A stretch of 64,000 nucleotides of DNA from a phage, in sequence record PZ452594.1. One strand, written 5' to 3'. The notes below the pieces were generated by a model. That model made no database searches and had not been told where the DNA came from. It was given only the letters and a program-made list of their open reading frames with translations. The position numbers were made by a program, and so were the translations under genes. Below are positions 11,746 to 59,695 of this stretch, one piece after another; the first letter of the stretch is position 1, and each line of letters begins with the position of its first letter.

Positions 11746-12165
11746 TTATTCCTTAAAGTGTGCTTTCAACATCTGATACAAGGACCATGCCTGTTCATTA
11801 TTTTCAATAGTAACTTTCATGACTGGGAATTCTGTGAAATCTTCTATTTGTTCTTGCTCTTTCTCTTCCTGCTCTTCAGCTGCCTGGTATGGATTTTCAA
11901 CTTCATCAAAGAACCCAGCTTCGTTAGTAGAAAGCCAGATAAAGTTTTCGTCAAGGATATCACCATGTGTTGCATATCCAACTGTGCCAGTAGATGTCAC
12001 AATTTTAGTAGGACGACCAAGATGGTCAACATCTAAAATTTTAAAAGGATGCATACCTAAACGGCGTGCATAGATTCCGTTATCAGTATGGTCTTTAATA
12101 AAATTTTCTTGAGCTTGTTTATTTTTAAATTGATACCATTTATTAACTTCAAATTTAATAGCCAT
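11746..12165 (-). CDS. hypothetical protein (139 aa), acidic C-terminus
   Basis: ORF track; size close to T4 goF but not verified. Confidence 0.5.
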
Positions 12166-12413
12166 TAATAAATTTCCTTCCAGTAAGTTGTGCCATCTTC
12201 AGTAATTTCACGAAATACACCGTAAATTGGTTGTTTATCACCAACCTTTTCATACACATAAACCGAAGTCAAGTGAGTAAACTTGATGGTGTGTTCCTTT
12301 TGAACTACTACCAAATCTGGATCGAATAATACATCTTCAAATTCGTCATTAGTGCAATTCTGAACAATTTTACGTTTCATTACAATTTCCTCATTAATTG
12401 AACAGTGGAGCAA
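12165..12413 (-). CDS. hypothetical protein (82 aa)
   Basis: ORF track; overlaps neighbours by a few nt. Confidence 0.45.
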
Positions 12414-12675
12414 TGCGTTTCAGAAGAGTAGTAGCACCTTTGGCGAATTTTACATCATGAAAAACAGTTTCTTCTTCTGTAACAACTCGAACTTTAATAT
12501 TTTCACAATCCCAATTTTTACGAGCAATCTTCAAAAGCTGCAGTAAATCTTTACATTCAGCAATATCGATAACACATCCACGAGAATCTTCCATTATCGC
12601 ACGATAACCGTAAGCCATACCATAATCGTTGAAAGATTGCTCGATGATAATTAAGTTTTCCATTTTATTCTCCAA
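12394..12675 (-). CDS. hypothetical protein (93 aa)
   Basis: ORF track; preceded by SD GGAGAATAAA and by a 12-bp inverted repeat tcagtagttgat/atcaactactga (12689-12729). Confidence 0.45.
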   Translation of the reverse strand: MENKMENLIIIEQSFNDYGMAYGYRAIMEDSRGCVIDIAECKDLLQLLKIARKNWDCENIKVRVVTEEETVFHDVKFAKGATTLLKRIAPLFN

Positions 12676-12760
12676 GTTGTTTTCTGTATCAGTAGTTGAT
12701 ATTGATATAGTACCATAATCAACTACTGATGTATATAGTTTTATGAAAAAATTTTAAACT

Positions 12761-13252
12761 TTATGCATAGCGAGCTTTGCTATAGTGTTTAATCCAACTT
12801 TCAGGAATGACTTTGTATGTTCCTAAAAATACCGCGTTGTATAACTTAACGCCATCTTCTACCCATTGATCAGTAATGTATGCACACATGGCGCGAGTAC
12901 GGTTAACAACCCCTTCCTCACCTTCAGTAAATTCAAACTCATAAGGAGCAACGAACTTAATAGCTTGACCGAGTTTCCACTTAAAGTCTACGCCTACATG
13001 CGAAGTATCAATCGTTTCAATTCCTTTAGCGGGAACAGCTTTCAAAAACGCAGGCTCAAGAAATTTCCATCGAACATAACCAAACTGAGGTTTAGACATT
13101 CCATCTTTAGGAATGATACGCACTTTTACTTCAGAATCTTCATCTTTAACACCATGTTTAAGCTGAATGCTTACGACTTCAACCAATTTTCCTGCTGCCT
13201 TAGAACGGGATTTATCAGATACACGAGCAATTTCACCGATATTAATATTCAT
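12761..13252 (-). CDS. hypothetical protein (163 aa), paralogue of next gene (MotB-sized)
   Basis: Shares TDQWVEDGVKLYNAVFLGTYKVIPES with TDQWIEDGVELLNVVHAGEYSVVPRS of ORF 13326-13826. Confidence 0.5.
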   Translation of the reverse strand: MNINIGEIARVSDKSRSKAAGKLVEVVSIQLKHGVKDEDSEVKVRIIPKDGMSKPQFGYVRWKFLEPAFLKAVPAKGIETIDTSHVGVDFKWKLGQAIKFVAPYEFEFTEGEEGVVNRTRAMCAYITDQWVEDGVKLYNAVFLGTYKVIPESWIKHYSKARYA

Positions 13253-50323: not shown

Positions 50324-50644
50324 TTATAGCGTAATCCATTCTCGTACTATCTGAGTTACTACACGTTCACGGGGCTCGACTAGTTCAACAGTCGGAACTG
50401 CATAATACCAGTCAGAATGATAAGAACCTGACCGAGATTCATTTACAGCCACATGTACATTATGTTTTGGACTAAAGTAAACACACTGACGATATTGACA
50501 TTTACCATCTTGCACCCAGTCTTCTATTTCGACAGGTTTAAGATAATCGGAAAAATCGAAATCATAGTTTTCCGAAAATGCATCATGGTCTTCAATGATT
50601 TCGCTCAGAACTGCATCAACATCTAATTTATTTTCAATAGTCAT
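50324..50644 (-). CDS. hypothetical protein (106 aa)
   Basis: ORF track; 49.x/pin-nrdC interval. Confidence 0.5.
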   Translation of the reverse strand: MTIENKLDVDAVLSEIIEDHDAFSENYDFDFSDYLKPVEIEDWVQDGKCQYRQCVYFSPKHNVHVAVNESRSGSYHSDWYYAVPTVELVEPRERVVTQIVREWITL

Positions 50645-50864: not shown

Positions 50865-51043
50865 TTAGAAATAGACTTTTCACCATTAGAATAATAAACT
50901 TCAAGTTTAGCACGATTATTTTTAATTTGAATAACCTTGGCTGTCATCAAAGTTCCATACCCATAATAAACTGCAACTTCATCACCTACATATACCGCGC
51001 TTCCGCGGTAATCATGAATATAGTCAGTTCCTTCGAGCATCAT
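50828..51043 (-). CDS. hypothetical protein (71 aa)
   Basis: ORF track; ATGA overlap with nrdC. Confidence 0.45.
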   Translation of the reverse strand: MMLEGTDYIHDYRGSAVYVGDEVAVYYGYGTLMTAKVIQIKNNRAKLEVYYSNGEKSISKWKYGDCMVKLG

Positions 51044-51303
51044 TTAAAATATTCTCGCAGTTGGTCAAATCCACCAATATGACTTCCATCAGGAGCAAAT
51101 ACCTGGGGCATTGTCAAGCCGATTTGAGTATCACGACCTAGTTTAGTCAGAAGCTCAGCGATTTTCTCATCATCAAAAACACCTTTTTCCGGCATAATGT
51201 TGATAAATTCAAACGGCTGTTTCTTCACGGTCAAAAGACGTTTTGCATTATCGCAATACACGCATTTATGAATGTTGCTATCATAACCATATACTTTAAA
51301 CAT
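51040..51303 (-). CDS. nrdC: thioredoxin/glutaredoxin NrdC (87 aa)
   Basis: Active site CVYC; MFKVYGYDSNIHKCVYCDNAKRLL... recognised as T4 NrdC. Confidence 0.9.
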   Translation of the reverse strand: MFKVYGYDSNIHKCVYCDNAKRLLTVKKQPFEFINIMPEKGVFDDEKIAELLTKLGRDTQIGLTMPQVFAPDGSHIGGFDQLREYFK

Positions 51304-51304
51304 A

Positions 51305-51547
51305 TTATTCCTTAATTCCTAGTACTTGTTTAAAAGTCTCGTCGTAATCAAGACTTTGGCCCGTTTGTTCTTTATGTTTGTATATAATATCACTTACTTC
51401 TGATAGCATATTTTTATATGAACGAGTTAAAGCAGATTTAAGCACGCTGTATCTATCAGGAAATTTACCATGTTCATTATAATAAGCTATTGCTAATTCA
51501 CGGACTGCCTTTTCAGCAGCCTCCATATATTCTTTACGCTTGGTCAT
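51305..51547 (-). CDS. hypothetical protein (80 aa)
   Basis: ORF track; nrdC.x accessory stretch. Confidence 0.5.
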
Positions 51548-51549
51548 TT

Positions 51550-51939
51550 TTAATCCAAAATATTATTAGGCATTGGTTGAACACTCACAAGTTCTTTAAA
51601 GAACTCAGTAGAGTCAGGCAATTTAACCATTTCCGGAGCATGCTTACTGAATTTATGTTTACATTGACGGCATTTATATTCAAGCTCTGGTTTACGCCAG
51701 TTAATCAACTGAACTTGTTCAGTACCGCATTCAGGGCAATTAGGAACGTTTTTAGAAGCTCTTTCACGTCGTTCAACCATAGCCATAATAGCATCCCATG
51801 CTGGAGGTTTAAAATCTAAATCGTCGCAGCCGTGAATCTTTCCACGCATTTCCATATCATCTTCCTCACCAGCCATAATAATTTTAATTAAACTGGAATT
51901 ACTTGAAGCTGCAATGTCTTCTAATAAACGCTTTTTCAT
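51550..51939 (-). CDS. zinc-ribbon protein (129 aa)
   Basis: CPECG...CRQCKHKF (CxxC-x17-CxxC); acidic N-terminal part. Confidence 0.5.
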
Positions 51940-52865
51940 TTCAATACCTCAATAGCATTACGTAAACCATTTGCTTTTGCATTAAGAGCTTTTAACAATT
52001 TGGTGTGTTCTGCAATTTGGGCTTCAACTTCAATCAAACGGGCATTGAGATATTCACGTTCTTCACTCAGATTATCAACCTTTTCTACTTTAGGCTCTTT
52101 TACAACTGTCTTATATGTATTAGGGTTCTTCAGTTTAATTAGAATGCGTGAACTGTATAACATTGAACCATTATCTTCGGTTTCGTCATACATTTCCACT
52201 ACGTCCATAATTTTTAACATCATGCGGAGTTTATAAGACAACGAACGAATAGTTTTGTTGTGCTTATTAATTTCTTTAGCTGTCATGGTGCCAAGATTAC
52301 GTGAGTAATAATAAGGAACCTGGATATTAATTAATACTGATGAACCACCTGGCTTGTGTGTTACTTCATCAGCAATAACCCAGTCCTTAACATGAACTGT
52401 ATTTGTACGGTCATCGCCCGCGGTAAATAGTTTGCGAGCATGCTTAAAAAGCATATTCACTTGGTCATTGAATTGACAAGCAAATTTATCAGCAAATTTA
52501 GTTTCAGGAATGGTAGAAAACCAATCAGCCAAATGAGTCTTTTTAACATCATTAACAATAGTAAATTCAACCAAATCGGTTATAGATGTCTCAGATTTAA
52601 TGAAGCTCGGCTTCATAAAGTTTTTAATGTTCTCATGAGCTACAGTAGAAGATAACATACGAGAACGTTTAAACCATTCAAGCAAATTGCCTAACGAATG
52701 AGAATAAGCGTTTTGAGTATCTTTACAGATATGATTTTCCTGACCAACATATTGAAGGAAATCACGAAGAATATTATTGATTACTGCTCTGTGTCCTATC
52801 TGATAATTACGATGTTTAGTAATAAGACTGTCAAAATAATCAATATAATGTTTACGAGTTTTCAT
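51936..52865 (-). CDS. hypothetical protein (309 aa) with C-terminal coiled coil
   Basis: ORF track; C-terminal heptad repeats ...[42 protein letters not shown]. Confidence 0.55.
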   Translation of the reverse strand: MKTRKHYIDYFDSLITKHRNYQIGHRAVINNILRDFLQYVGQENHICKDTQNAYSHSLGNLLEWFKRSRMLSSTVAHENIKNFMKPSFIKSETSITDLVEFTIVNDVKKTHLADWFSTIPETKFADKFACQFNDQVNMLFKHARKLFTAGDDRTNTVHVKDWVIADEVTHKPGGSSVLINIQVPYYYSRNLGTMTAKEINKHNKTIRSLSYKLRMMLKIMDVVEMYDETEDNGSMLYSSRILIKLKNPNTYKTVVKEPKVEKVDNLSEEREYLNARLIEVEAQIAEHTKLLKALNAKANGLRNAIEVLK

Positions 52866-52917
52866 GTTCTTCTCACTTGGTTAATGGTTTATACTCCGAG
52901 CCATCCTTGGCTTTAAA

Positions 52918-53916
52918 TTACTTAATTAACTGTAAAGCTTGTTCAAGACGATCAAGACGATTAACGGATTCTTCCCAAATCTTTTTAGCCTGCTCATATT
53001 CTTTCTGCGCTTTATTAGAAATTTCTAGAACTTCTTTATAAGCTTTTTCTAATGCAATAACTTCTGGACGAATTTCTACCGGTTCAGGTGAATCATCAAG
53101 ACATTCCATTAGTTCCTCAAGGGTAGTTTCTTCTTTAGGAGTATTCACAATTTCATCACATTTTTGTTGGTAAATTTCTTTACTAGTAGGTGAATAAGTA
53201 CATTTCACTTCACGAAGACTAACTACAATTTTATATCCTTCCCAACCGCATATATTCTTAAAAGGATATGTATGAATATTTTCTACTGTTTCCATACAGC
53301 CCAAAACCGCCTCTAATTGATAAGTTATAGTGCTAGCAATTGAGAAAAATTTATTAATATTCTTTTGGTTAGCGTTTGGTGTAAAAAATCCATAATTCAC
53401 AAAAATAGCTACTTTATTTTCATCAAGCTCATATTCTTTTACGATAATCATATCAGAAGCCAAAGGATGAATTTGACGATAATCGCCATAACATAATTTA
53501 GAAGCTGATTTTAGAATTTGTCCTTTGAAAAGTCTGAAATTACTAATCCAACGACGAGTAAAAATATTCTCAGGGTCTTCTTTATTAAGATGATAAGAAT
53601 TAACATCACCGAACCAATTATATCCTACTACATCTTTAGTTCGTTTAATTTCTTTCCCAAATTTACTAAGAATATCTCTGTTGACTAAGTATGAAAGAAG
53701 ACGAGACCCTTTAAAGGTTTTCTTAATGTCATCTTTATCTGTACGACTAGAAATTTCACGAACTTCATGAATAAATTTGCCGGAAGAAACAATACTTGCA
53801 TCAGTATTATTGAGCCATTGATTGATAATAGAAATCACACTATTCTGACTAGACATAGGTTTAACTTTATCATCAATAACGCTGTTGAACGATTTAATAT
53901 ATTCGTTGCGAGTCAT
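52918..53916 (-). CDS. hypothetical protein (~332 aa) with C-terminal coiled coil
   Basis: Track ORF 52918-53946; start moved to ATG with SD GAGGAG downstream of promoter; C-terminal ...KEYEQAKKIWEESVNRLDRLEQALQLIK. Confidence 0.55.
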   Translation of the reverse strand: MTRNEYIKSFNSVIDDKVKPMSSQNSVISIINQWLNNTDASIVSSGKFIHEVREISSRTDKDDIKKTFKGSRLLSYLVNRDILSKFGKEIKRTKDVVGYNWFGDVNSYHLNKEDPENIFTRRWISNFRLFKGQILKSASKLCYGDYRQIHPLASDMIIVKEYELDENKVAIFVNYGFFTPNANQKNINKFFSIASTITYQLEAVLGCMETVENIHTYPFKNICGWEGYKIVVSLREVKCTYSPTSKEIYQQKCDEIVNTPKEETTLEELMECLDDSPEPVEIRPEVIALEKAYKEVLEISNKAQKEYEQAKKIWEESVNRLDRLEQALQLIK

Positions 53917-53944
53917 ATTAATCTCCTCAGTAGAAAGTAAGAAC

Positions 53945-53974
53945 ATTATACCACATCCTTGTGGCGAAGTAAAC
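53945..53974 (-). promoter_or_regulatory. T4-type early promoter
   Basis: GTTTAC (rc 53969-53974), 18-nt spacer, TATAAT (rc 53945-53950). Confidence 0.45.
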
Positions 53975-54978
53975 TAGTTTAGTGCATTTAGTGCGTTGTT
54001 CAATTTAGAACGTTGCTTCGTGAGATTTTTTACTTTTTCTTGGGCTTTTTCTAGCATCTTTTCAGCTTCTAACACTTCATTAGTTGCTTTAACGAGTTCA
54101 TCATCTACTGCCTTGATAGACTTCTCAATCGCATCCGCGTGCCATTTTTCAACAGGTTTAAGACTCGGATTTTCAACAGGAAGAAAATTCACTTTATTGA
54201 ATTTCCATGCATCATTATTACCTGAACTATACATCCAAAATTTAGGATCGTTTGATGAGTAATTAGTTTGGGGTTCAGGTTTTTTCTCTTGTGTAACTTC
54301 GTCCTTTCTCAAAAAATCATATTTAAATGAAACGATCATATCAAGTTCATATGTTGTCGTATCTAATTTAAATCGTTCGAAATGCTGCGAAATCTTAGAT
54401 TGAACAGCAGCAACAACATCCATATACTTAAATGCTTCTGTCAGCTGTGATTTAAGACATTCACAAATTGAAAGAGAATTTTTTGTATTAGGTTTAAAGC
54501 TAATTCGTGCAGTTCTATTATTTTCTTTAGATGGTCTTACTTCCATCTGAAGAGTATAACCATCAAATTTCAGATTCTTTAAGTTAATATCAGAACCTTT
54601 TAATCGACTAGCCGTCGACAAAATTTGCTTTAATTGTTTACGGAATAGAGCAATAAATCTCCATTCAATACGATAATGATTTGGATTGAAAAATCCAGAT
54701 GATAAATCGACCTTACTCTGACCAACACCTTGAACAAATAGAGGATTTTTATAATCAATAGTTTTACAGAAATCGGTGAGCTGCTCACGAGCAGTCATTT
54801 GTGTAATATACCCCGCTTTACTAAAATGACGTAACCATTCACTGCTATTCATATATTTAAAGTGAATATCACGATTAACTTTATCAGGGTCTAAATTATT
54901 TTGGCACAAAAATGTCATAACATCGCGAGTATAGCTGGCATTACGAACCATATCTTCAATTTGAGAACGAGTTTTCAT
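53974..54978 (-). CDS. hypothetical protein (334 aa) with C-terminal coiled coil
   Basis: ORF track; C-terminal ...LVKATNEVLEAEKMLEKAQEKVKNLTKQRSKLNNALNALN. Confidence 0.55.
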   Translation of the reverse strand: MKTRSQIEDMVRNASYTRDVMTFLCQNNLDPDKVNRDIHFKYMNSSEWLRHFSKAGYITQMTAREQLTDFCKTIDYKNPLFVQGVGQSKVDLSSGFFNPNHYRIEWRFIALFRKQLKQILSTASRLKGSDINLKNLKFDGYTLQMEVRPSKENNRTARISFKPNTKNSLSICECLKSQLTEAFKYMDVVAAVQSKISQHFERFKLDTTTYELDMIVSFKYDFLRKDEVTQEKKPEPQTNYSSNDPKFWMYSSGNNDAWKFNKVNFLPVENPSLKPVEKWHADAIEKSIKAVDDELVKATNEVLEAEKMLEKAQEKVKNLTKQRSKLNNALNALN

Positions 54979-54986
54979 GGTGTTCC

Positions 54987-55895
54987 TTAAGATTTAAGTA
55001 AATCAACAATTTTAATTAATTTTTCACGTTCAGATTTAGCTTTACTACTCAGTCCAGATAGTCTGAAAATTTCATCGTCATATTGTTGAATAGAAATATT
55101 CAGCTCTTCAATTTGCTTATTAAAATAATCAATTTGTTCAGAATGTTTTTCGTTACTACGAACTGGTACAGGTTTTGTAGGAAATTTAGTTAAACTGGAT
55201 TCATCCGGGCGATAAATTAAAATGCAATTTGAACCAATCGGGCATTTAGCACCAGATGAATATTCTAACGTTCCAGCTTCTTTTAAAACTTCAAAAGCTA
55301 AACAGAGATGATGCCCCATATTAACATAATCTGTAGAGCGAGCTCTGATATAATAATCATCGCCGCGAATACTAAATTTAAAGCATTTAAGGTCTTCTGT
55401 ATTATTGGTCTTAAAAATCATTTGTTTATCTAGACCTTTAGCTAATCGAGCGCCTAATGCTAATAATCGTCGTTGATTTTCCCACAAATCCGCAATCATT
55501 TGATCGAATGACAATTTCGGCATTAGTCTACCATAAAGGTCATATCCTTTATTATAATTGCGAAGAATTTCACTCGCGTTAATACGAGACAACGCTCCAA
55601 TTTTATTAAGGGCTTTCATGATGCGATTAGATAAACCCATTCCAGACCCGTTTGTTCGCTGTAAATGTTTTTCTAATCCAAATCCAATATCAACTTTAAA
55701 CTTATCTAAAATTTCTGCATGAACATCTCTGTCAATAACATTCAAATCCAAAGTTGGGTTAAATCTATGAAAAAATTTATCTGGCTCTCCACGACGAAGT
55801 ACAGTCCATTCATTCAATTTTTTATTAACTAAAGATTTAATTACTGCATTGACATTATTAATTACTACTGACATATTTTCCTCACTCAATTTCAA
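54987..55895 (-). CDS. hypothetical protein (302 aa) with C-terminal coiled coil
   Basis: ORF track; C-terminal ...QIEELNISIQQYDDEIFRLSGLSSKAKSEREKLIKIVDLLKS. Confidence 0.55.
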   Translation of the reverse strand: MKLSEENMSVVINNVNAVIKSLVNKKLNEWTVLRRGEPDKFFHRFNPTLDLNVIDRDVHAEILDKFKVDIGFGLEKHLQRTNGSGMGLSNRIMKALNKIGALSRINASEILRNYNKGYDLYGRLMPKLSFDQMIADLWENQRRLLALGARLAKGLDKQMIFKTNNTEDLKCFKFSIRGDDYYIRARSTDYVNMGHHLCLAFEVLKEAGTLEYSSGAKCPIGSNCILIYRPDESSLTKFPTKPVPVRSNEKHSEQIDYFNKQIEELNISIQQYDDEIFRLSGLSSKAKSEREKLIKIVDLLKS

Positions 55896-56289
55896 TTTTA
55901 CTAAATACGCAGAATATGATGGAAAAGACTATATAAGCACCGCATACAGATTGAACTAATACCATTCCAAAGAACCAAACAATATTATCAAACAATGTCT
56001 GTTTTACGTCGAAAGGACGTAAACTTACAGTAATATTATCGCCTTTTTCTATTGATGAATACATCTCTGGGGAAATATATTCGCTAAATCTATAACCGTC
56101 TTTGAGTTCATATACGGCAATAAACGATAAACTAGACCCCTTTCCTTGAGTTCCTGTAAGGGTATTAACTACAGTAACATCATAATCTTTATAATGCATA
56201 TAATCATTAATTGCGTAATAACCATATGCAATTACTATACATAAACAACATATCAATAAATTCAATCTTTTAATTATCAACTGTTTCAT
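55882..56289 (-). CDS. membrane protein (135 aa)
   Basis: Hydrophobic segments at both ends (LLICCLCIVIAYGYYAI; VWFFGMVLVQSVCGAYIVFSIIFCVF). Confidence 0.5.
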   Translation of the reverse strand: MKQLIIKRLNLLICCLCIVIAYGYYAINDYMHYKDYDVTVVNTLTGTQGKGSSLSFIAVYELKDGYRFSEYISPEMYSSIEKGDNITVSLRPFDVKQTLFDNIVWFFGMVLVQSVCGAYIVFSIIFCVFSKIEIE

Positions 56290-56318
56290 AATAATCTCAA
56301 TTAAAAGGGCTTAGAACC

Positions 56319-56343
56319 ATTATACCATCCTTGGTATAAAGCG
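56319..56343 (-). promoter_or_regulatory. MotA-dependent middle promoter
   Basis: Minus sense cGCTTTA (MotA box), 12-nt spacer, TATAAT (rc 56319-56324); 30 nt upstream of ORF 55882-56289. Confidence 0.4.
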
Positions 56344-56344
56344 G

Positions 56345-56872
56345 TTATGCGAGTACCGTCTTTAACCGTTCTTCAAACTTCCGAAGAGTATTCTGGCGTT
56401 CAGCTCTTTGCTTTTTGTAAGTTTCAATACGCTCTGAAATGAGAGTGTATCGTTCATTTACTGATTCTTTCATAAAATCAGGAATTTCACGAGAAGCTTT
56501 AATCTCGTCAAATTTATCAATAACAGCTTGCTCTTCAGCAATTAAGTTATCATACATCAAAATATCTTTCTTGATGAACTCAATATCTTCTTGAGTTACA
56601 CGAGATAATTTAGATGCTTTATCCTTTTTGTACTGTTCGTTAGTATCACGAGACCAGTGTAATGTACGATTTTTATTCGTATTCTTATAAATTTCTACAA
56701 TACCAATCTCATCAATAATAACGATCCAATTCCAACGGGATTTGTAAATTTGTCCTCCATCAACAGTGATTTCACCTCCGATTGAGATGTCATTAAAGAA
56801 CTTGCTTTGTGCTTCAGATTTAAATTTACCATCATTGTAGTTTACCAAGTTGAAAATATCTTTAGCATTCAT
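56345..56872 (-). CDS. hypothetical protein (~175 aa), coiled-coil C-terminus
   Basis: Track ORF 56345-56932; start moved to ATG (MNAKDIFNLV...) downstream of promoter cassette, SD GGAGGAACA. Confidence 0.5.
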   Translation of the reverse strand: MNAKDIFNLVNYNDGKFKSEAQSKFFNDISIGGEITVDGGQIYKSRWNWIVIIDEIGIVEIYKNTNKNRTLHWSRDTNEQYKKDKASKLSRVTQEDIEFIKKDILMYDNLIAEEQAVIDKFDEIKASREIPDFMKESVNERYTLISERIETYKKQRAERQNTLRKFEERLKTVLA

Positions 56873-56931: not shown

Positions 56932-57246
56932 CTAAAAGAAACTTCTTTCACAATTTTTTCCACTGAACCAAGCGCTCACTGCTTTCTTAGTCTCAGGAGC
57001 AGTGTTATCCATAAACCATTCAAAGGCAGCCTTTTTATGATTCTGGAGGGCTTCTCGGGCTTTAATCTGCTCACGGTCTATTAACACTAACATATGAGCC
57101 TTTCTTGTCACCAAGGGCTTCTTATGATTCTTGGAGTATTCCCAGTCATTTGTCCAACGCATTGTCGTTGCGAACTGATGAACCGCGTCTTTAATTTTAG
57201 TTTCGTAAATTTCACGAGCCTTTGAGTATAACATCACTACCTCCAT
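56932..57246 (-). CDS. hypothetical protein (104 aa)
   Basis: ORF track. Confidence 0.4.
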   Translation of the reverse strand: MEVVMLYSKAREIYETKIKDAVHQFATTMRWTNDWEYSKNHKKPLVTRKAHMLVLIDREQIKAREALQNHKKAAFEWFMDNTAPETKKAVSAWFSGKNCERSFF

Positions 57247-57335
57247 TTACCAGTTTAATTCTAATCATCTTTTTGATGGCAGTCCATATAATCTATTTCT
57301 GAACTGCCTTTTTGTCATAGAAGTCCTCTTATGAA

Positions 57336-58304
57336 TTATTTCAGAAGAGTAACCTCAGCGATTTCTTCCCAACCGTTTTTGTCGGTCATAATAAAGTCAG
57401 CAAGATAAAGAGCAGTACGCAGTGAAACATTACGTAAACGATTAACATTGACTTTCATCCATGATAATGCTTTATAAGTTTCTTCATCAGAAAGACCGCG
57501 CTTTTGCATCATGTCAGTTGAAAGAATAACATCTTCAACCCTGACCATAATTTCTTCATTAGTGTGAACACCCAAATCCAAATAAACTGAGCGGGACACT
57601 AATGCTTGTAAATGTGGAGCAAGTTTAGTACCACGGTCTAATTCGCGGTCAATGTCAACGTTTGTGATAAAAACAATCGTTCCTTTAAATTCAAACTCAC
57701 GCTCAATGCCTTTTTCTTCTAAGTAAGAAGATGCGGTGCTCCAGCAGACTTTACGGGTCTCTCCAGTGTCCAGAGCAGCTTTCAGAAGATTAAGAATGTC
57801 CATATCAGAGAAAACATCCACATCATCAATCAAAAGGACAGAATTCTCTTCACGATTATTCCAAAGCTGCTCATAAAGACCAATACCAGAGATTTTACCA
57901 TTAATGCTTTTATATTCAATGTATCCAATATCATTTGCTTTATTTAAAGCTTTATCTAAAGAATACGTTTTACCAATACCTGCTGCACCAGAGATAATTA
58001 ATGAACGAATGTTTCCGTTAATAATACCATTCGTCATCATTCCCATAACATTAAATCTTTTATTAATGCGGGTTTTCATATCTTCATACGATTCTTTAAC
58101 TTCTTCAACTTTTACACCATCATATGAAATGTCTGATTTGTAAACCCAAACACCGCGACGTTTACCGTCAATTTCAACAAAAACTTTACCATCTCCTTGT
58201 GCATCTACCGGAGCATTATCTGGGAACCATTCGCCTAAGAGCTCAAAAGTTCCAGAAATTTCTTTACCGAAGTAGATACCCTTATTGATAGTTACAGTTT
58301 TCAT
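57336..58304 (-). CDS. P-loop NTPase (322 aa)
   Basis: Walker A GAAGIGKTYS and Walker B VLLIDDVD. Confidence 0.6.
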   Translation of the reverse strand: MKTVTINKGIYFGKEISGTFELLGEWFPDNAPVDAQGDGKVFVEIDGKRRGVWVYKSDISYDGVKVEEVKESYEDMKTRINKRFNVMGMMTNGIINGNIRSLIISGAAGIGKTYSLDKALNKANDIGYIEYKSINGKISGIGLYEQLWNNREENSVLLIDDVDVFSDMDILNLLKAALDTGETRKVCWSTASSYLEEKGIEREFEFKGTIVFITNVDIDRELDRGTKLAPHLQALVSRSVYLDLGVHTNEEIMVRVEDVILSTDMMQKRGLSDEETYKALSWMKVNVNRLRNVSLRTALYLADFIMTDKNGWEEIAEVTLLK

Positions 58305-58649: not shown

Positions 58650-58679
58650 TGAAATAAAAAAGGGAGCCCGAAGGCTCCC
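58650..58679 (-). terminator. intrinsic terminator
   Basis: Hairpin gggagcc-cgaa-ggctccc (58662-58679; UUCG loop in RNA) followed by U-run (plus A-run 58654-58661). Confidence 0.6.
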
Positions 58680-58681
58680 TA

Positions 58682-59695
58682 TCATTTATAATAACTTCGG
58701 TGGTTTTCAAGATAGACCTTCTCAAGGAAGTCATCCCAGAAACTCATGTCTACTTTTTGCTGCATACCGTTCTTAGAAGCTTCAGTAGATGCTGCTTCTA
58801 CTTGATCAACCACATCTTCCAAAAACTCTTGAACTGTTTTAAATGGATGTTTACCCAACTTCACGTCGAGAATAAATGGAGCATCTTGGAGTGGATAAAT
58901 CAAGTCGCCAGTTTTGTAAATTTCCAATAGTTGAAGTCCACCACGACAAGCATGACTTAGTGCTTTCCAATCAATACCTTCATTAGCTTCGGCTTTACGA
59001 GCACGTTCACCATATTCAGCATCTAATTTGTTCAGTGACTGCTTAAGCTCAATAAGAGAAAGTGTTGTCTGATATTTACGACCCAACACAGTGTAGAACG
59101 TTTGCGGGCCTGTTTTCTCGTGATTATGGAACACCCATTCACAGAATTCGTTTTCTGGAAGACGATGCTTAATATCTTCAACTTTAGTGCGACGCTGCTT
59201 AATAGAACCATCTTCTTGGTAATCAATCCACTGCTCAGGAATTTGATTAACTACTTTCAATACATCACGTAATGCAGCCAAACGAGAACCCTTGACACCG
59301 TATTTAGAAGCTTGCTTGCGAACATATCCTAAATAGGATTTCATGTTAGTCGTATAAAAACGAGAACGGTTGTCTTGAATAAACTTCCACACGTCAGGCA
59401 AATCAGATTTAACCACTAGTTCAGGTGGAGTGTGAAGCATATCCAATGCTACAGTTTCACCATCTGCTGCTAATTTAAAGAAATATTTAAGACTGTATAG
59501 TTCATGGTCAATATCATCTTTAGTGTTTTTAGATGATGTGTTGTTGGTATTTTTACTCATATGCTCTTTAACATTTCCGATAAGAATATCGCGAGCAGGA
59601 GGAACAAAGATTTCTTTAAAATCTACATCAGATTCTGGGGTAGAAGTTCCATAAAGATGACTACCAAAATAGCTTTTCATTACTGTTTTCATCAT
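58682..59695 (-). CDS. Pol-beta-superfamily nucleotidyltransferase-like protein (337 aa)
   Basis: N-terminal GSHLYGTSTPESDVDF fits the hG[GS]x9-13 D-x-[DE] nucleotidyltransferase signature; followed by terminator. Confidence 0.5.
   Translation of the reverse strand: MMKTVMKSYFGSHLYGTSTPESDVDFKEIFVPPARDILIGNVKEHMSKNTNNTSSKNTKDDIDHELYSLKYFFKLAADGETVALDMLHTPPELVVKSDLPDVWKFIQDNRSRFYTTNMKSYLGYVRKQASKYGVKGSRLAALRDVLKVVNQIPEQWIDYQEDGSIKQRRTKVEDIKHRLPENEFCEWVFHNHEKTGPQTFYTVLGRKYQTTLSLIELKQSLNKLDAEYGERARKAEANEGIDWKALSHACRGGLQLLEIYKTGDLIYPLQDAPFILDVKLGKHPFKTVQEFLEDVVDQVEAASTEASKNGMQQKVDMSFWDDFLEKVYLENHRSYYK

Follow-up and report, generated by a model that had tools for sequence, protein, structure and literature searches.

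Tandem nrdC.3 to nrdC.6 genes of a T4-like phage as one paralogue family of head–linker–coiled-coil design and candidate inhibitors of host defence

The stretch of phage DNA analyzed here (sequence record PZ452594.1, 64,000 nucleotides, referred to below as the window) belongs to a T4-like (Tequatrovirus) genome and carries, side by side, the orthologues of the T4 genes nrdC.3, nrdC.4, nrdC.5, and nrdC.6. These four genes very probably represent a single, strongly diverged paralogue family with a common head–linker–coiled-coil architecture. Each member consists of an α/β head of about 220–260 residues, a flexible linker rich in Pro, Glu, and Lys, and an amphipathic C-terminal helix of seven heptads. 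They belong to a series of early genes that are dispensable on laboratory hosts, and inhibition of a host defence has been published for several of these, nrdC.5 included. The functional reading that we favor for all four, and hold to be somewhat likelier right than wrong, is that of an anti-defence island with a diversified family of inhibitors that are probably oligomeric. The four genes and nrdC.8, which an earlier note based on the DNA sequence had grouped with them, are located as follows; gene names were assigned by comparison with the T4 reference annotation (NC_000866) and with one annotated relative.

51936..52865, minus strand: nrdC.3 orthologue, paralogue 1; 309 residues, with a head, a linker, and a C-terminal heptad helix.
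52918..53916, minus strand: nrdC.4 orthologue, paralogue 2; 332 residues, with head 1–257, linker 260–283, and helix 284–331.
53974..54978, minus strand: nrdC.5 orthologue, paralogue 3; 334 residues, Pfam PF23882 (DUF7235).
54987..55874, minus strand: nrdC.6 orthologue, paralogue 4; 295 residues, with head 1–221, linker 227–241, and helices 242–271 and 277–294.
56345..56872, minus strand: nrdC.8 orthologue; 175 residues, outside the paralogue family.

The minus strand is the coding strand of every gene near nrdC.3–nrdC.8, and all five open reading frames (ORFs) listed in the earlier note are present on it. The fourth of them, however, ends at 55874 and not at 55895, since the start found in all homologues is the ATG at 55874 (MSVVINN...) rather than the TTG at 55895. 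A comparison with the nrdC.x genes of T4, as the note had proposed, identifies the five as the orthologues named above, with protein identities to T4 of 61% (nrdC.3), 91% (nrdC.4), 91% (nrdC.5), 97% (nrdC.6), and 99% (nrdC.8). A search with the 5.8 kb around nrdC.3–nrdC.8 returned 741 phage records, nearly all of them Tequatrovirus, with the top match at 98%. The assignment of nrdC.5 is supported by full-length similarity to its T4 counterpart, by its position between nrdC.4 and nrdC.6 in the same order as in NC_000866, and by a match to PF23882 of 393 bits (cut-off 30) that covers profile positions 1–307. No match to this profile was found in nrdC.3, nrdC.4, nrdC.6, or nrdC.8. Orthology to T4 genes leaves the suggestion of an inhibitor family standing, because the T4 orthologues are themselves little characterized, nrdC.5 being the only one with a phenotype.

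The N-terminal domains of these proteins had been taken to be unrelated, a view that the comparison of the heads does not sustain. The heads of nrdC.3 and nrdC.4 are 25% identical over 226 residues by BLASTP, both proteins belong to the same PHROG (1435), and their family profiles align with an hhalign probability of 97.8% (E 1e-12). The profiles of nrdC.4 and nrdC.5 align over about 245 columns with a probability of 91.8% (E 7e-7). The fourth member is more remote: pairwise family-to-family hhalign finds no link of nrdC.6 to nrdC.3, nrdC.4, or nrdC.5, and the connection is made by a joint profile of nrdC.3, nrdC.4, and nrdC.5, which matches nrdC.6 with a probability of 79% (E 1.6e-5, or 1.2e-4 when the last 60 residues are removed). 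Two motifs are paired in that alignment, SRLLSYLV with G.LSR.NA and ILK.AsKL..Gd with LLALGARLA.G.D. Within the 64-kb window, the family profiles match these four ORFs only.

The predicted folds of nrdC.4 and nrdC.6 agree with this assignment. The core of both models has the same order of elements, helix–helix–short helix–strand–strand–helix–strand–strand, and in Foldseek searches of BFVD the two models share targets at a probability of 1.0. These targets are uncharacterized proteins of 300–370 residues from T4-like phages of Acinetobacter, Pectobacterium, Klebsiella, Erwinia, Serratia, Enterobacter, and Yersinia, and the nrdC.4 model also matches a protein of phage JS10 that is itself a member of the nrdC.6 family. 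A sequence search against solved structures returned designed helical repeats or nothing, and a Pfam scan of all members of the alignments yielded no recurrent meaningful family. In precomputed Pfam assignments, the members are distributed over three entries, PF26897 (nrdC.3 and nrdC.4), PF23882 (nrdC.5), and PF26899 (nrdC.6); a link among these three is absent from present family assignments.

All four heads are followed by C-terminal segments in which hydrophobic residues recur with a heptad period, as the earlier note had observed. These segments were scored by a simple count, devised for this analysis and distinct from COILS or MARCOIL, of hydrophobic residues at positions a and d in the last 49 residues, with P values obtained by shuffling the residue composition of each tail. 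The results are listed below.

51939..52085, minus strand: heptad helix of nrdC.3, 49 residues; 12/14 a/d positions hydrophobic, shuffle P = 0.003.
52921..53067, minus strand: heptad helix of nrdC.4, 49 residues; 11/14 a/d positions hydrophobic, shuffle P = 0.006.
53977..54123, minus strand: heptad helix of nrdC.5, 49 residues; 13/14 a/d positions hydrophobic, shuffle P <5e-5.
54990..55136, minus strand: heptad segment of nrdC.6, 49 residues; 12/14 a/d positions hydrophobic, shuffle P = 1.5e-4.

The four tails share their length, one unbroken heptad register counted from the C-terminal L-K, and the terminal motif h-x-x-h-L-K. Only one of 65 other minus-strand ORFs of the window reaches 11 hydrophobic a/d positions at its C terminus, and a cruder heptad score gave the same picture. 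The tail of nrdC.8, which had been said to end similarly, is weaker (9/14, P = 0.03), and neither family hhalign nor the joint profile detects any homology of this protein to nrdC.3–nrdC.6. With nrdC.8 outside the family, the tail is common to four ORFs and not five; nrdC.8 is an unrelated small inhibitor, and its helical end is coincidental.

The likeness of the tails could also be a product of convergence among Lys/Glu/Leu-rich helices, with no real family behind it. Coiled coils are compositionally biased, and BLASTP comparisons of the tails alone against each other are not significant. The homology, however, is carried by the heads when the tails are removed, the BLAST and hhalign alignments are confined to the head regions, the predicted folds of nrdC.4 and nrdC.6 agree, and both the register and the end motif are shared. 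Homologous heads exclude the possibility that the tails are alike by convergence and have no common ancestor, and we regard the absence of a real family as very improbable.

Structure models, calculated with AlphaFold2 from the family alignments, are available for nrdC.4 and nrdC.6, while the linker–helix feature of nrdC.3 and nrdC.5 is recognized from the sequence pattern alone. In nrdC.4, residues 1–257 are globular, mostly with a predicted local distance difference test score (pLDDT) above 85, and residues 260–283 are disordered. They are followed by a 48-residue helix (284–331, pLDDT about 70) that stands isolated in this monomer prediction and packs on nothing. The model of nrdC.6 (pLDDT 78) is globular to about residue 221 and disordered at 227–241, and its tail consists of two helices (242–271 and 277–294) interrupted by a Gly-Leu-Ser turn. 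In the T4 reference (NC_000866, L015, about 12008–12894), nrdC.6 is frameshifted near residue 258, which places its last 37 residues, the tail, in another frame. Because the gene is intact at 295 residues in the window and in most relatives, and because it measures 891 bp in the T4 annotation of the HIDEN-SEQ preprint cited below, this frameshift is either strain-specific or a sequence error.

The suggestion that a variable head is mounted on a conserved oligomerization tail, as in an inhibitor family, stands in part. Among distant orthologues, identity is indeed higher in the tail than in the head, both for nrdC.4 (61% vs 44%) and for nrdC.6 (65% vs 39%); the heads, as described above, are nevertheless homologous, and nrdC.8 does not belong to the group. 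In nrdC.5, with corresponding values of 28% and 22%, the tail has no such advantage. Conservation within the tails follows the order a/d > e/g > b/c/f, as predicted for a coiled coil, and the tail would serve in oligomerization.

A different use of the same element would be that of a docking helix, bound to the host target (for example, in a groove of the TPR sensor of Dsr1, the defence protein overcome by T4 NrdC.5), with the head blocking the trigger site or acting there as a decoy. Helices and C-terminal peptides are common ligands of TPR domains, and Dsr1 senses by means of its TPR repeats. Moreover, no part of nrdC.4 or nrdC.6 is better conserved than the tail, a fair degree of conservation extends even to the exposed b/c/f positions, and the extreme C termini of all four proteins are alike. 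Against such docking, the order of conservation is what any ordinary coiled coil would show, and nrdC.5, the sole member with a known target, is the one in which the tail is not conserved beyond the head. We consider this arrangement clearly unlikely.

The connection of this region with inhibitors, proposed in the earlier note, is borne out by two of its five ORFs, for which counter-defence activity has been published: nrdC.5 in T4 and, for nrdC.8, Bas37_0203. A T4 clone with compensatory deletions failed on strain ECOR17, and deletion of dsr1 from the host restored plating; likewise, when T4 nrdC.5 was expressed from a plasmid, a T4 deletion clone could again plate on MG1655 supplied with dsr1, with no mechanism given (Srikant, Guegler, and Laub, eLife 2022, PMC9391042). 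This activity was reported for the T4 protein, from which nrdC.5 of the window differs at 9% of positions. Dsr1 is a SIR2 NADase (sirtuin) defence protein with a TPR sensor domain in common with Avs7, and its trigger is the phage major capsid protein, a late product (2026 preprint, PMC12803255). Bas37_0203, the 175-residue nrdC.8 orthologue of phage Bas37 (KarlGJung), is an inhibitor of Druantia type III, with a log2 fold change of -5.8 on isolate CFE303 (HIDEN-SEQ preprint, bioRxiv 10.1101/2025.11.20.689424), and nrdC.8 of the window is 99.4% identical to it over 175 residues. In the same preprint, T4 nrdC.1 is described as a Septu inhibitor and its Bas37 orthologue drops by log2 2.4 on CFE299; T4 nrdC.3–nrdC.9 and their Bas37 orthologues are non-essential on K-12, as judged from transposon libraries (10.1101/2025.11.20.689424). 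Gp49.2 of phage T6, for its part, inhibits OLD (2026, PMC13096335).

On present evidence, the family appears to be limited to T4-like phages (Straboviridae), in which it occurs as one to four tandem copies at one syntenic site. Three word-indexed searches gave T4-like phage sequences only, and when 1.84 billion representative proteins were searched exhaustively with HMMER, 10 hits were obtained, all of the same kind. Some matches carry bacterial labels, and those noted are located on contigs of ~167 kb, a size typical of T4-like genomes. Comparison of 13 viral contigs shows the array nrdC.6-.5-.4-.3 in Tequatrovirus and nrdC.6-.5-.4, without nrdC.3, in more distant enterobacterial T4-like contigs. 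In Acinetobacter phage Acj61 (Twarogvirinae), two members lie in tandem between nrdC.10 and nrdC; a sequence profile supports one of them, and for the other the support is from Foldseek only. A Klebsiella Jiaodavirus has one clear member.

The members of the family diverge faster than most of their neighbors. Identity to the distant contigs is 22–28% for nrdC.5, 39–51% for nrdC.4, and 45–52% for nrdC.6; on the same contigs it is 67–70% for nrdC.8 and 76–84% for nrdC.10 and nrdC.11. A tblastn search with nrdC.5 gave 641 phage records, of which 496 are at least 80% identical, 145 are below 60%, and none falls between 60 and 80%. The ratio of nonsynonymous to synonymous substitution rates (dN/dS), a gene-wide average over seven Tequatrovirus genomes, is 0.14–0.29 for nrdC.3–nrdC.6 and 0.01–0.07 for nrdC, gene 49, nrdC.8, nrdC.9, and nrdC.11. 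Two alleles of nrdC.3, 61% identical, occur within flanks that are 98–100% identical, and the adjacent nrdC.2 also has two alleles, 78% identical and differing at the C terminus (nrdC.2 and nrdC.3 together occupy 51550–52865 of the window). Type 1 is found in the window, in the related sequence L001, and in Bas37, and type 2 in T4, L002, and L003; accordingly, nrdC.3 of the window is of the Bas37 allele type (Bas37_0198, 98% identical).

Several copies are broken or rearranged. The nrdC.4 gene is split into parts of 193 and 158 residues in one Tequatrovirus contig from IMG/VR (L004, 10950–11982) and is present as fragments of 155–158 residues in phages T2 (A0A2Z5WKJ2) and G8 (A0A482N302). A protein of 299 residues (P0225), found on three contigs, the longest of 167 kb, joins about residues 145–265 of nrdC.5 to about residues 135–309 of nrdC.3, with the removal of nrdC.4. 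The two parts meet where their sequences resemble each other in a short motif (..FNKVN / ..FNDQVN), and the fusion looks like a product of recombination between paralogues.

These observations bear on the possibility that nrdC.3–nrdC.6 are subunits of a single machine, a hetero-oligomeric complex assembled through their similar coiled coils. The tails are alike in length, register, and end motif, and the genes are adjacent, co-directional, and closely spaced, all of which would suit such a complex. Such a machine, on the other hand, is hard to reconcile with the finding that related phages have anything from one to four copies, with the split nrdC.4 genes and the frameshifted nrdC.6 of the T4 reference, or with a natural nrdC.5::nrdC.3 fusion that deletes nrdC.4. 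In addition, plasmid-borne nrdC.5 rescues the Dsr1 phenotype by itself, with the proviso that the source does not say which other copies the rescued clone retained. We judge the single complex improbable.

A number of points weigh against our preferred reading of all four genes as defence inhibitors. The Bas37 orthologues of nrdC.3–nrdC.6 were not significantly depleted on isolates CFT073, CFE299, CFE303, and CFE331 (10.1101/2025.11.20.689424). For the T4 clone that nrdC.5 rescues (“evo 3”), the text of the eLife paper does not state how far the deletion extends, and nrdC.5 may or may not have acted there without its paralogues. The dN/dS of nrdC.10 is 0.20, so the contrast between the family and its flanks is not clean, and the gene-wide values for nrdC.3–nrdC.6 remain below 1, which gives no direct sign of positive selection; they point to relaxed or diversifying pressure rather than to proven positive selection. 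Finally, the broken nrdC.4 of some phages and the frameshift in nrdC.6 of the T4 reference mean that copies are easily lost.

The same points could be read as an indication that nrdC.5 is the only counter-defence gene of the four, whereas nrdC.3, nrdC.4, and nrdC.6 take part in host take-over or regulation or are drifting, near-neutral copies. The lack of a phenotype of the Bas37 orthologues on the four clinical isolates or on K-12, the frequent loss or breakage of copies, and a raised dN/dS still below 1, compatible with relaxed constraint as well, are all in line with this explanation. However, nrdC.5 itself is neutral on those same isolates, and neutrality is thus weak evidence against a defence role of the others. 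Moreover, intact orthologues with many invariant residues have been kept across several T4-like genera, and several of the neighbors with a published function are anti-defence genes. Such a restriction of the activity to nrdC.5 seems to us unlikely, although it deserves to be kept in mind.

If all four genes are indeed inhibitors, their mode of action may be outlined as follows. The products of nrdC.3–nrdC.6 would be made early and would bind host immune proteins directly and stoichiometrically, before the late trigger appears, which for Dsr1 means before the capsid protein. Selection among immune proteins, or among variants of one, would be the task of the diverged heads, and the conserved tail would bring the chains together into a dimer or a higher oligomer, which would provide avidity if the defence proteins are themselves oligomeric. 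It would follow that nrdC.3, nrdC.4, and nrdC.6 are aimed at other defence systems, yet to be identified. Another conceivable role of the heads, to which we assign a low probability, is mimicry of a virion protein, by which sensors that recognize folds would be decoyed. A possible similarity of the heads to the fold of phage tail terminator or tail completion proteins (λ gpU, T5 p142, GTA, and others) is a lead and not a finding.

Among known systems, the most direct comparison is with T4 NrdC.5 (DUF7235), of which window ORF 53974–54978 is the orthologue, with 91% identity, the same position, and a full-length PF23882 match. Its architecture is common to the other three proteins, with nrdC.3 and nrdC.4 linked to it by profile and nrdC.6 by the joint profile together with the predicted fold. 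Unlike NrdC.5, these three lie outside DUF7235, their homologues carrying PF26897 or PF26899; the paralogues nrdC.3, nrdC.4, and nrdC.6 are mutually 25% identical or less, and they are without a reported target or phenotype.

A functional analogue is provided by DSAD1, which is described as a phage inhibitor of a SIR2 NADase defence triggered by a phage structural protein (PMC10973363, PMC10981675, PMC11087589). DSAD1, likened here by function only, may serve as a working model for the action of NrdC.5 on Dsr1, with the difference that DSAD1 acts on DSR2, whereas NrdC.5 overcomes Dsr1. We know of no description of DSAD1 that includes a head–linker–coiled-coil architecture or a tandem array of paralogues.

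Bas37_0203 resembles nrdC.3–nrdC.6 in belonging to the same gene run and in its helical, Lys/Glu/Arg-rich end, but it has only 175 residues, shows weak heptads, and has no detectable homology to them. The clusters dmd-tifA-adfA and 49.2/nrdC.1 are groups of small, non-essential early genes, each of which disables one defence, and the run described here is located in such a cluster. However, the genes of those clusters are unrelated, as described in the literature, while nrdC.3–nrdC.6 are adjacent paralogues.

The other genes of the region, with coordinates in the window, are listed below.

50324..50644, minus strand: gp49.2 orthologue; 106 residues, 96% identical to T4 49.2.
51040-51303, minus strand: nrdC, after the T4 annotation.
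51305..51547, minus strand: nrdC.1 orthologue; 80 residues.
51550-51939, minus strand: nrdC.2, after the T4 annotation.
55882..56289, minus strand: nrdC.7 orthologue; 135 residues, a predicted membrane protein between the family and nrdC.8, not a member.
56932-57246, minus strand: nrdC.9, after the T4 annotation.
57336-58304, minus strand: nrdC.10, a P-loop ATPase.
58682-59695, minus strand: nrdC.11, a nucleotidyltransferase.

The proteins from nrdC.8 to nrdC.11 are 98–99% identical to those of T4. The nrdC.10 protein shows weak AAA/STAND-like Pfam matches and is far commoner among phages than the nrdC.3–nrdC.6 family, being present in 1312 phage records that include Vibrio, Aeromonas, and jumbo phages, and nrdC.11 matches the RlaP nucleotidyltransferase family. 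In some relatives, the gap between nrdC.9 and nrdC.10 (57247–57335 in the window) is occupied by a gene for a homing endonuclease of 239 residues (L014, 8825–9544; L003, 6837–7556); the window and T4 are without it.

A scan for sigma-70 promoter-like sites gave 33 sites against 31 expected; since these sites are not enriched, no conclusions about operons were drawn. One such site on the minus strand (53945–53973), between nrdC.5 and the start of nrdC.4, consists of TTTACT, a 17-nucleotide spacer, and TATAAT with an upstream TG, and overlaps an in-frame ATG at 53946, upstream of the conserved nrdC.4 start at 53916. A strong, terminator-like hairpin, also on the minus strand (58661–58680), is located just 3′ of the nrdC.11 stop codon and has a GC-rich stem of 8 bp (6 G-C) followed by a run of T.

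The names under which these genes are deposited require a comment. In many GenBank records nrdC.1 to nrdC.11 are labeled “thioredoxin”, a label that appears to have spread from the nrdC prefix of the gene names. A thioredoxin or glutaredoxin identity was rejected for the five ORFs considered here, none of which has such a Pfam match or a CxxC motif. Similarly, T4 nrdC.8 appears as a nucleotide reductase among the down-regulated genes in RNA-seq work on the DRT1 defence (PMC13275509), and this name, too, appears to follow the gene-name prefix rather than evidence.

The ORFs discussed here are long-annotated T4 genes, and the counter-defence activity of two of the five had already been published. 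What is new is the recognition, based on profile and fold comparisons, that nrdC.3–nrdC.6 very probably form one paralogue family with a common architecture that spans three Pfam entries, and with it three concrete candidates and a design hypothesis centered on a known anti-Dsr1 protein. PF26897, DUF7235, and PF26899, as well as PHROG 1435 and its neighbors, would thereby be joined into one superfamily, and a widespread mislabeling of these nrdC.x genes as thioredoxins is corrected. Phage counter-defence genes have mostly been found singly, by genetics; here NrdC.5, a validated but mechanistically unexplained inhibitor, belongs to a four-copy tandem family of common design, which makes nrdC.3, nrdC.4, and nrdC.6 good candidates for inhibitors of immunity in hundreds of T4-like phages that are used as models and in therapy.

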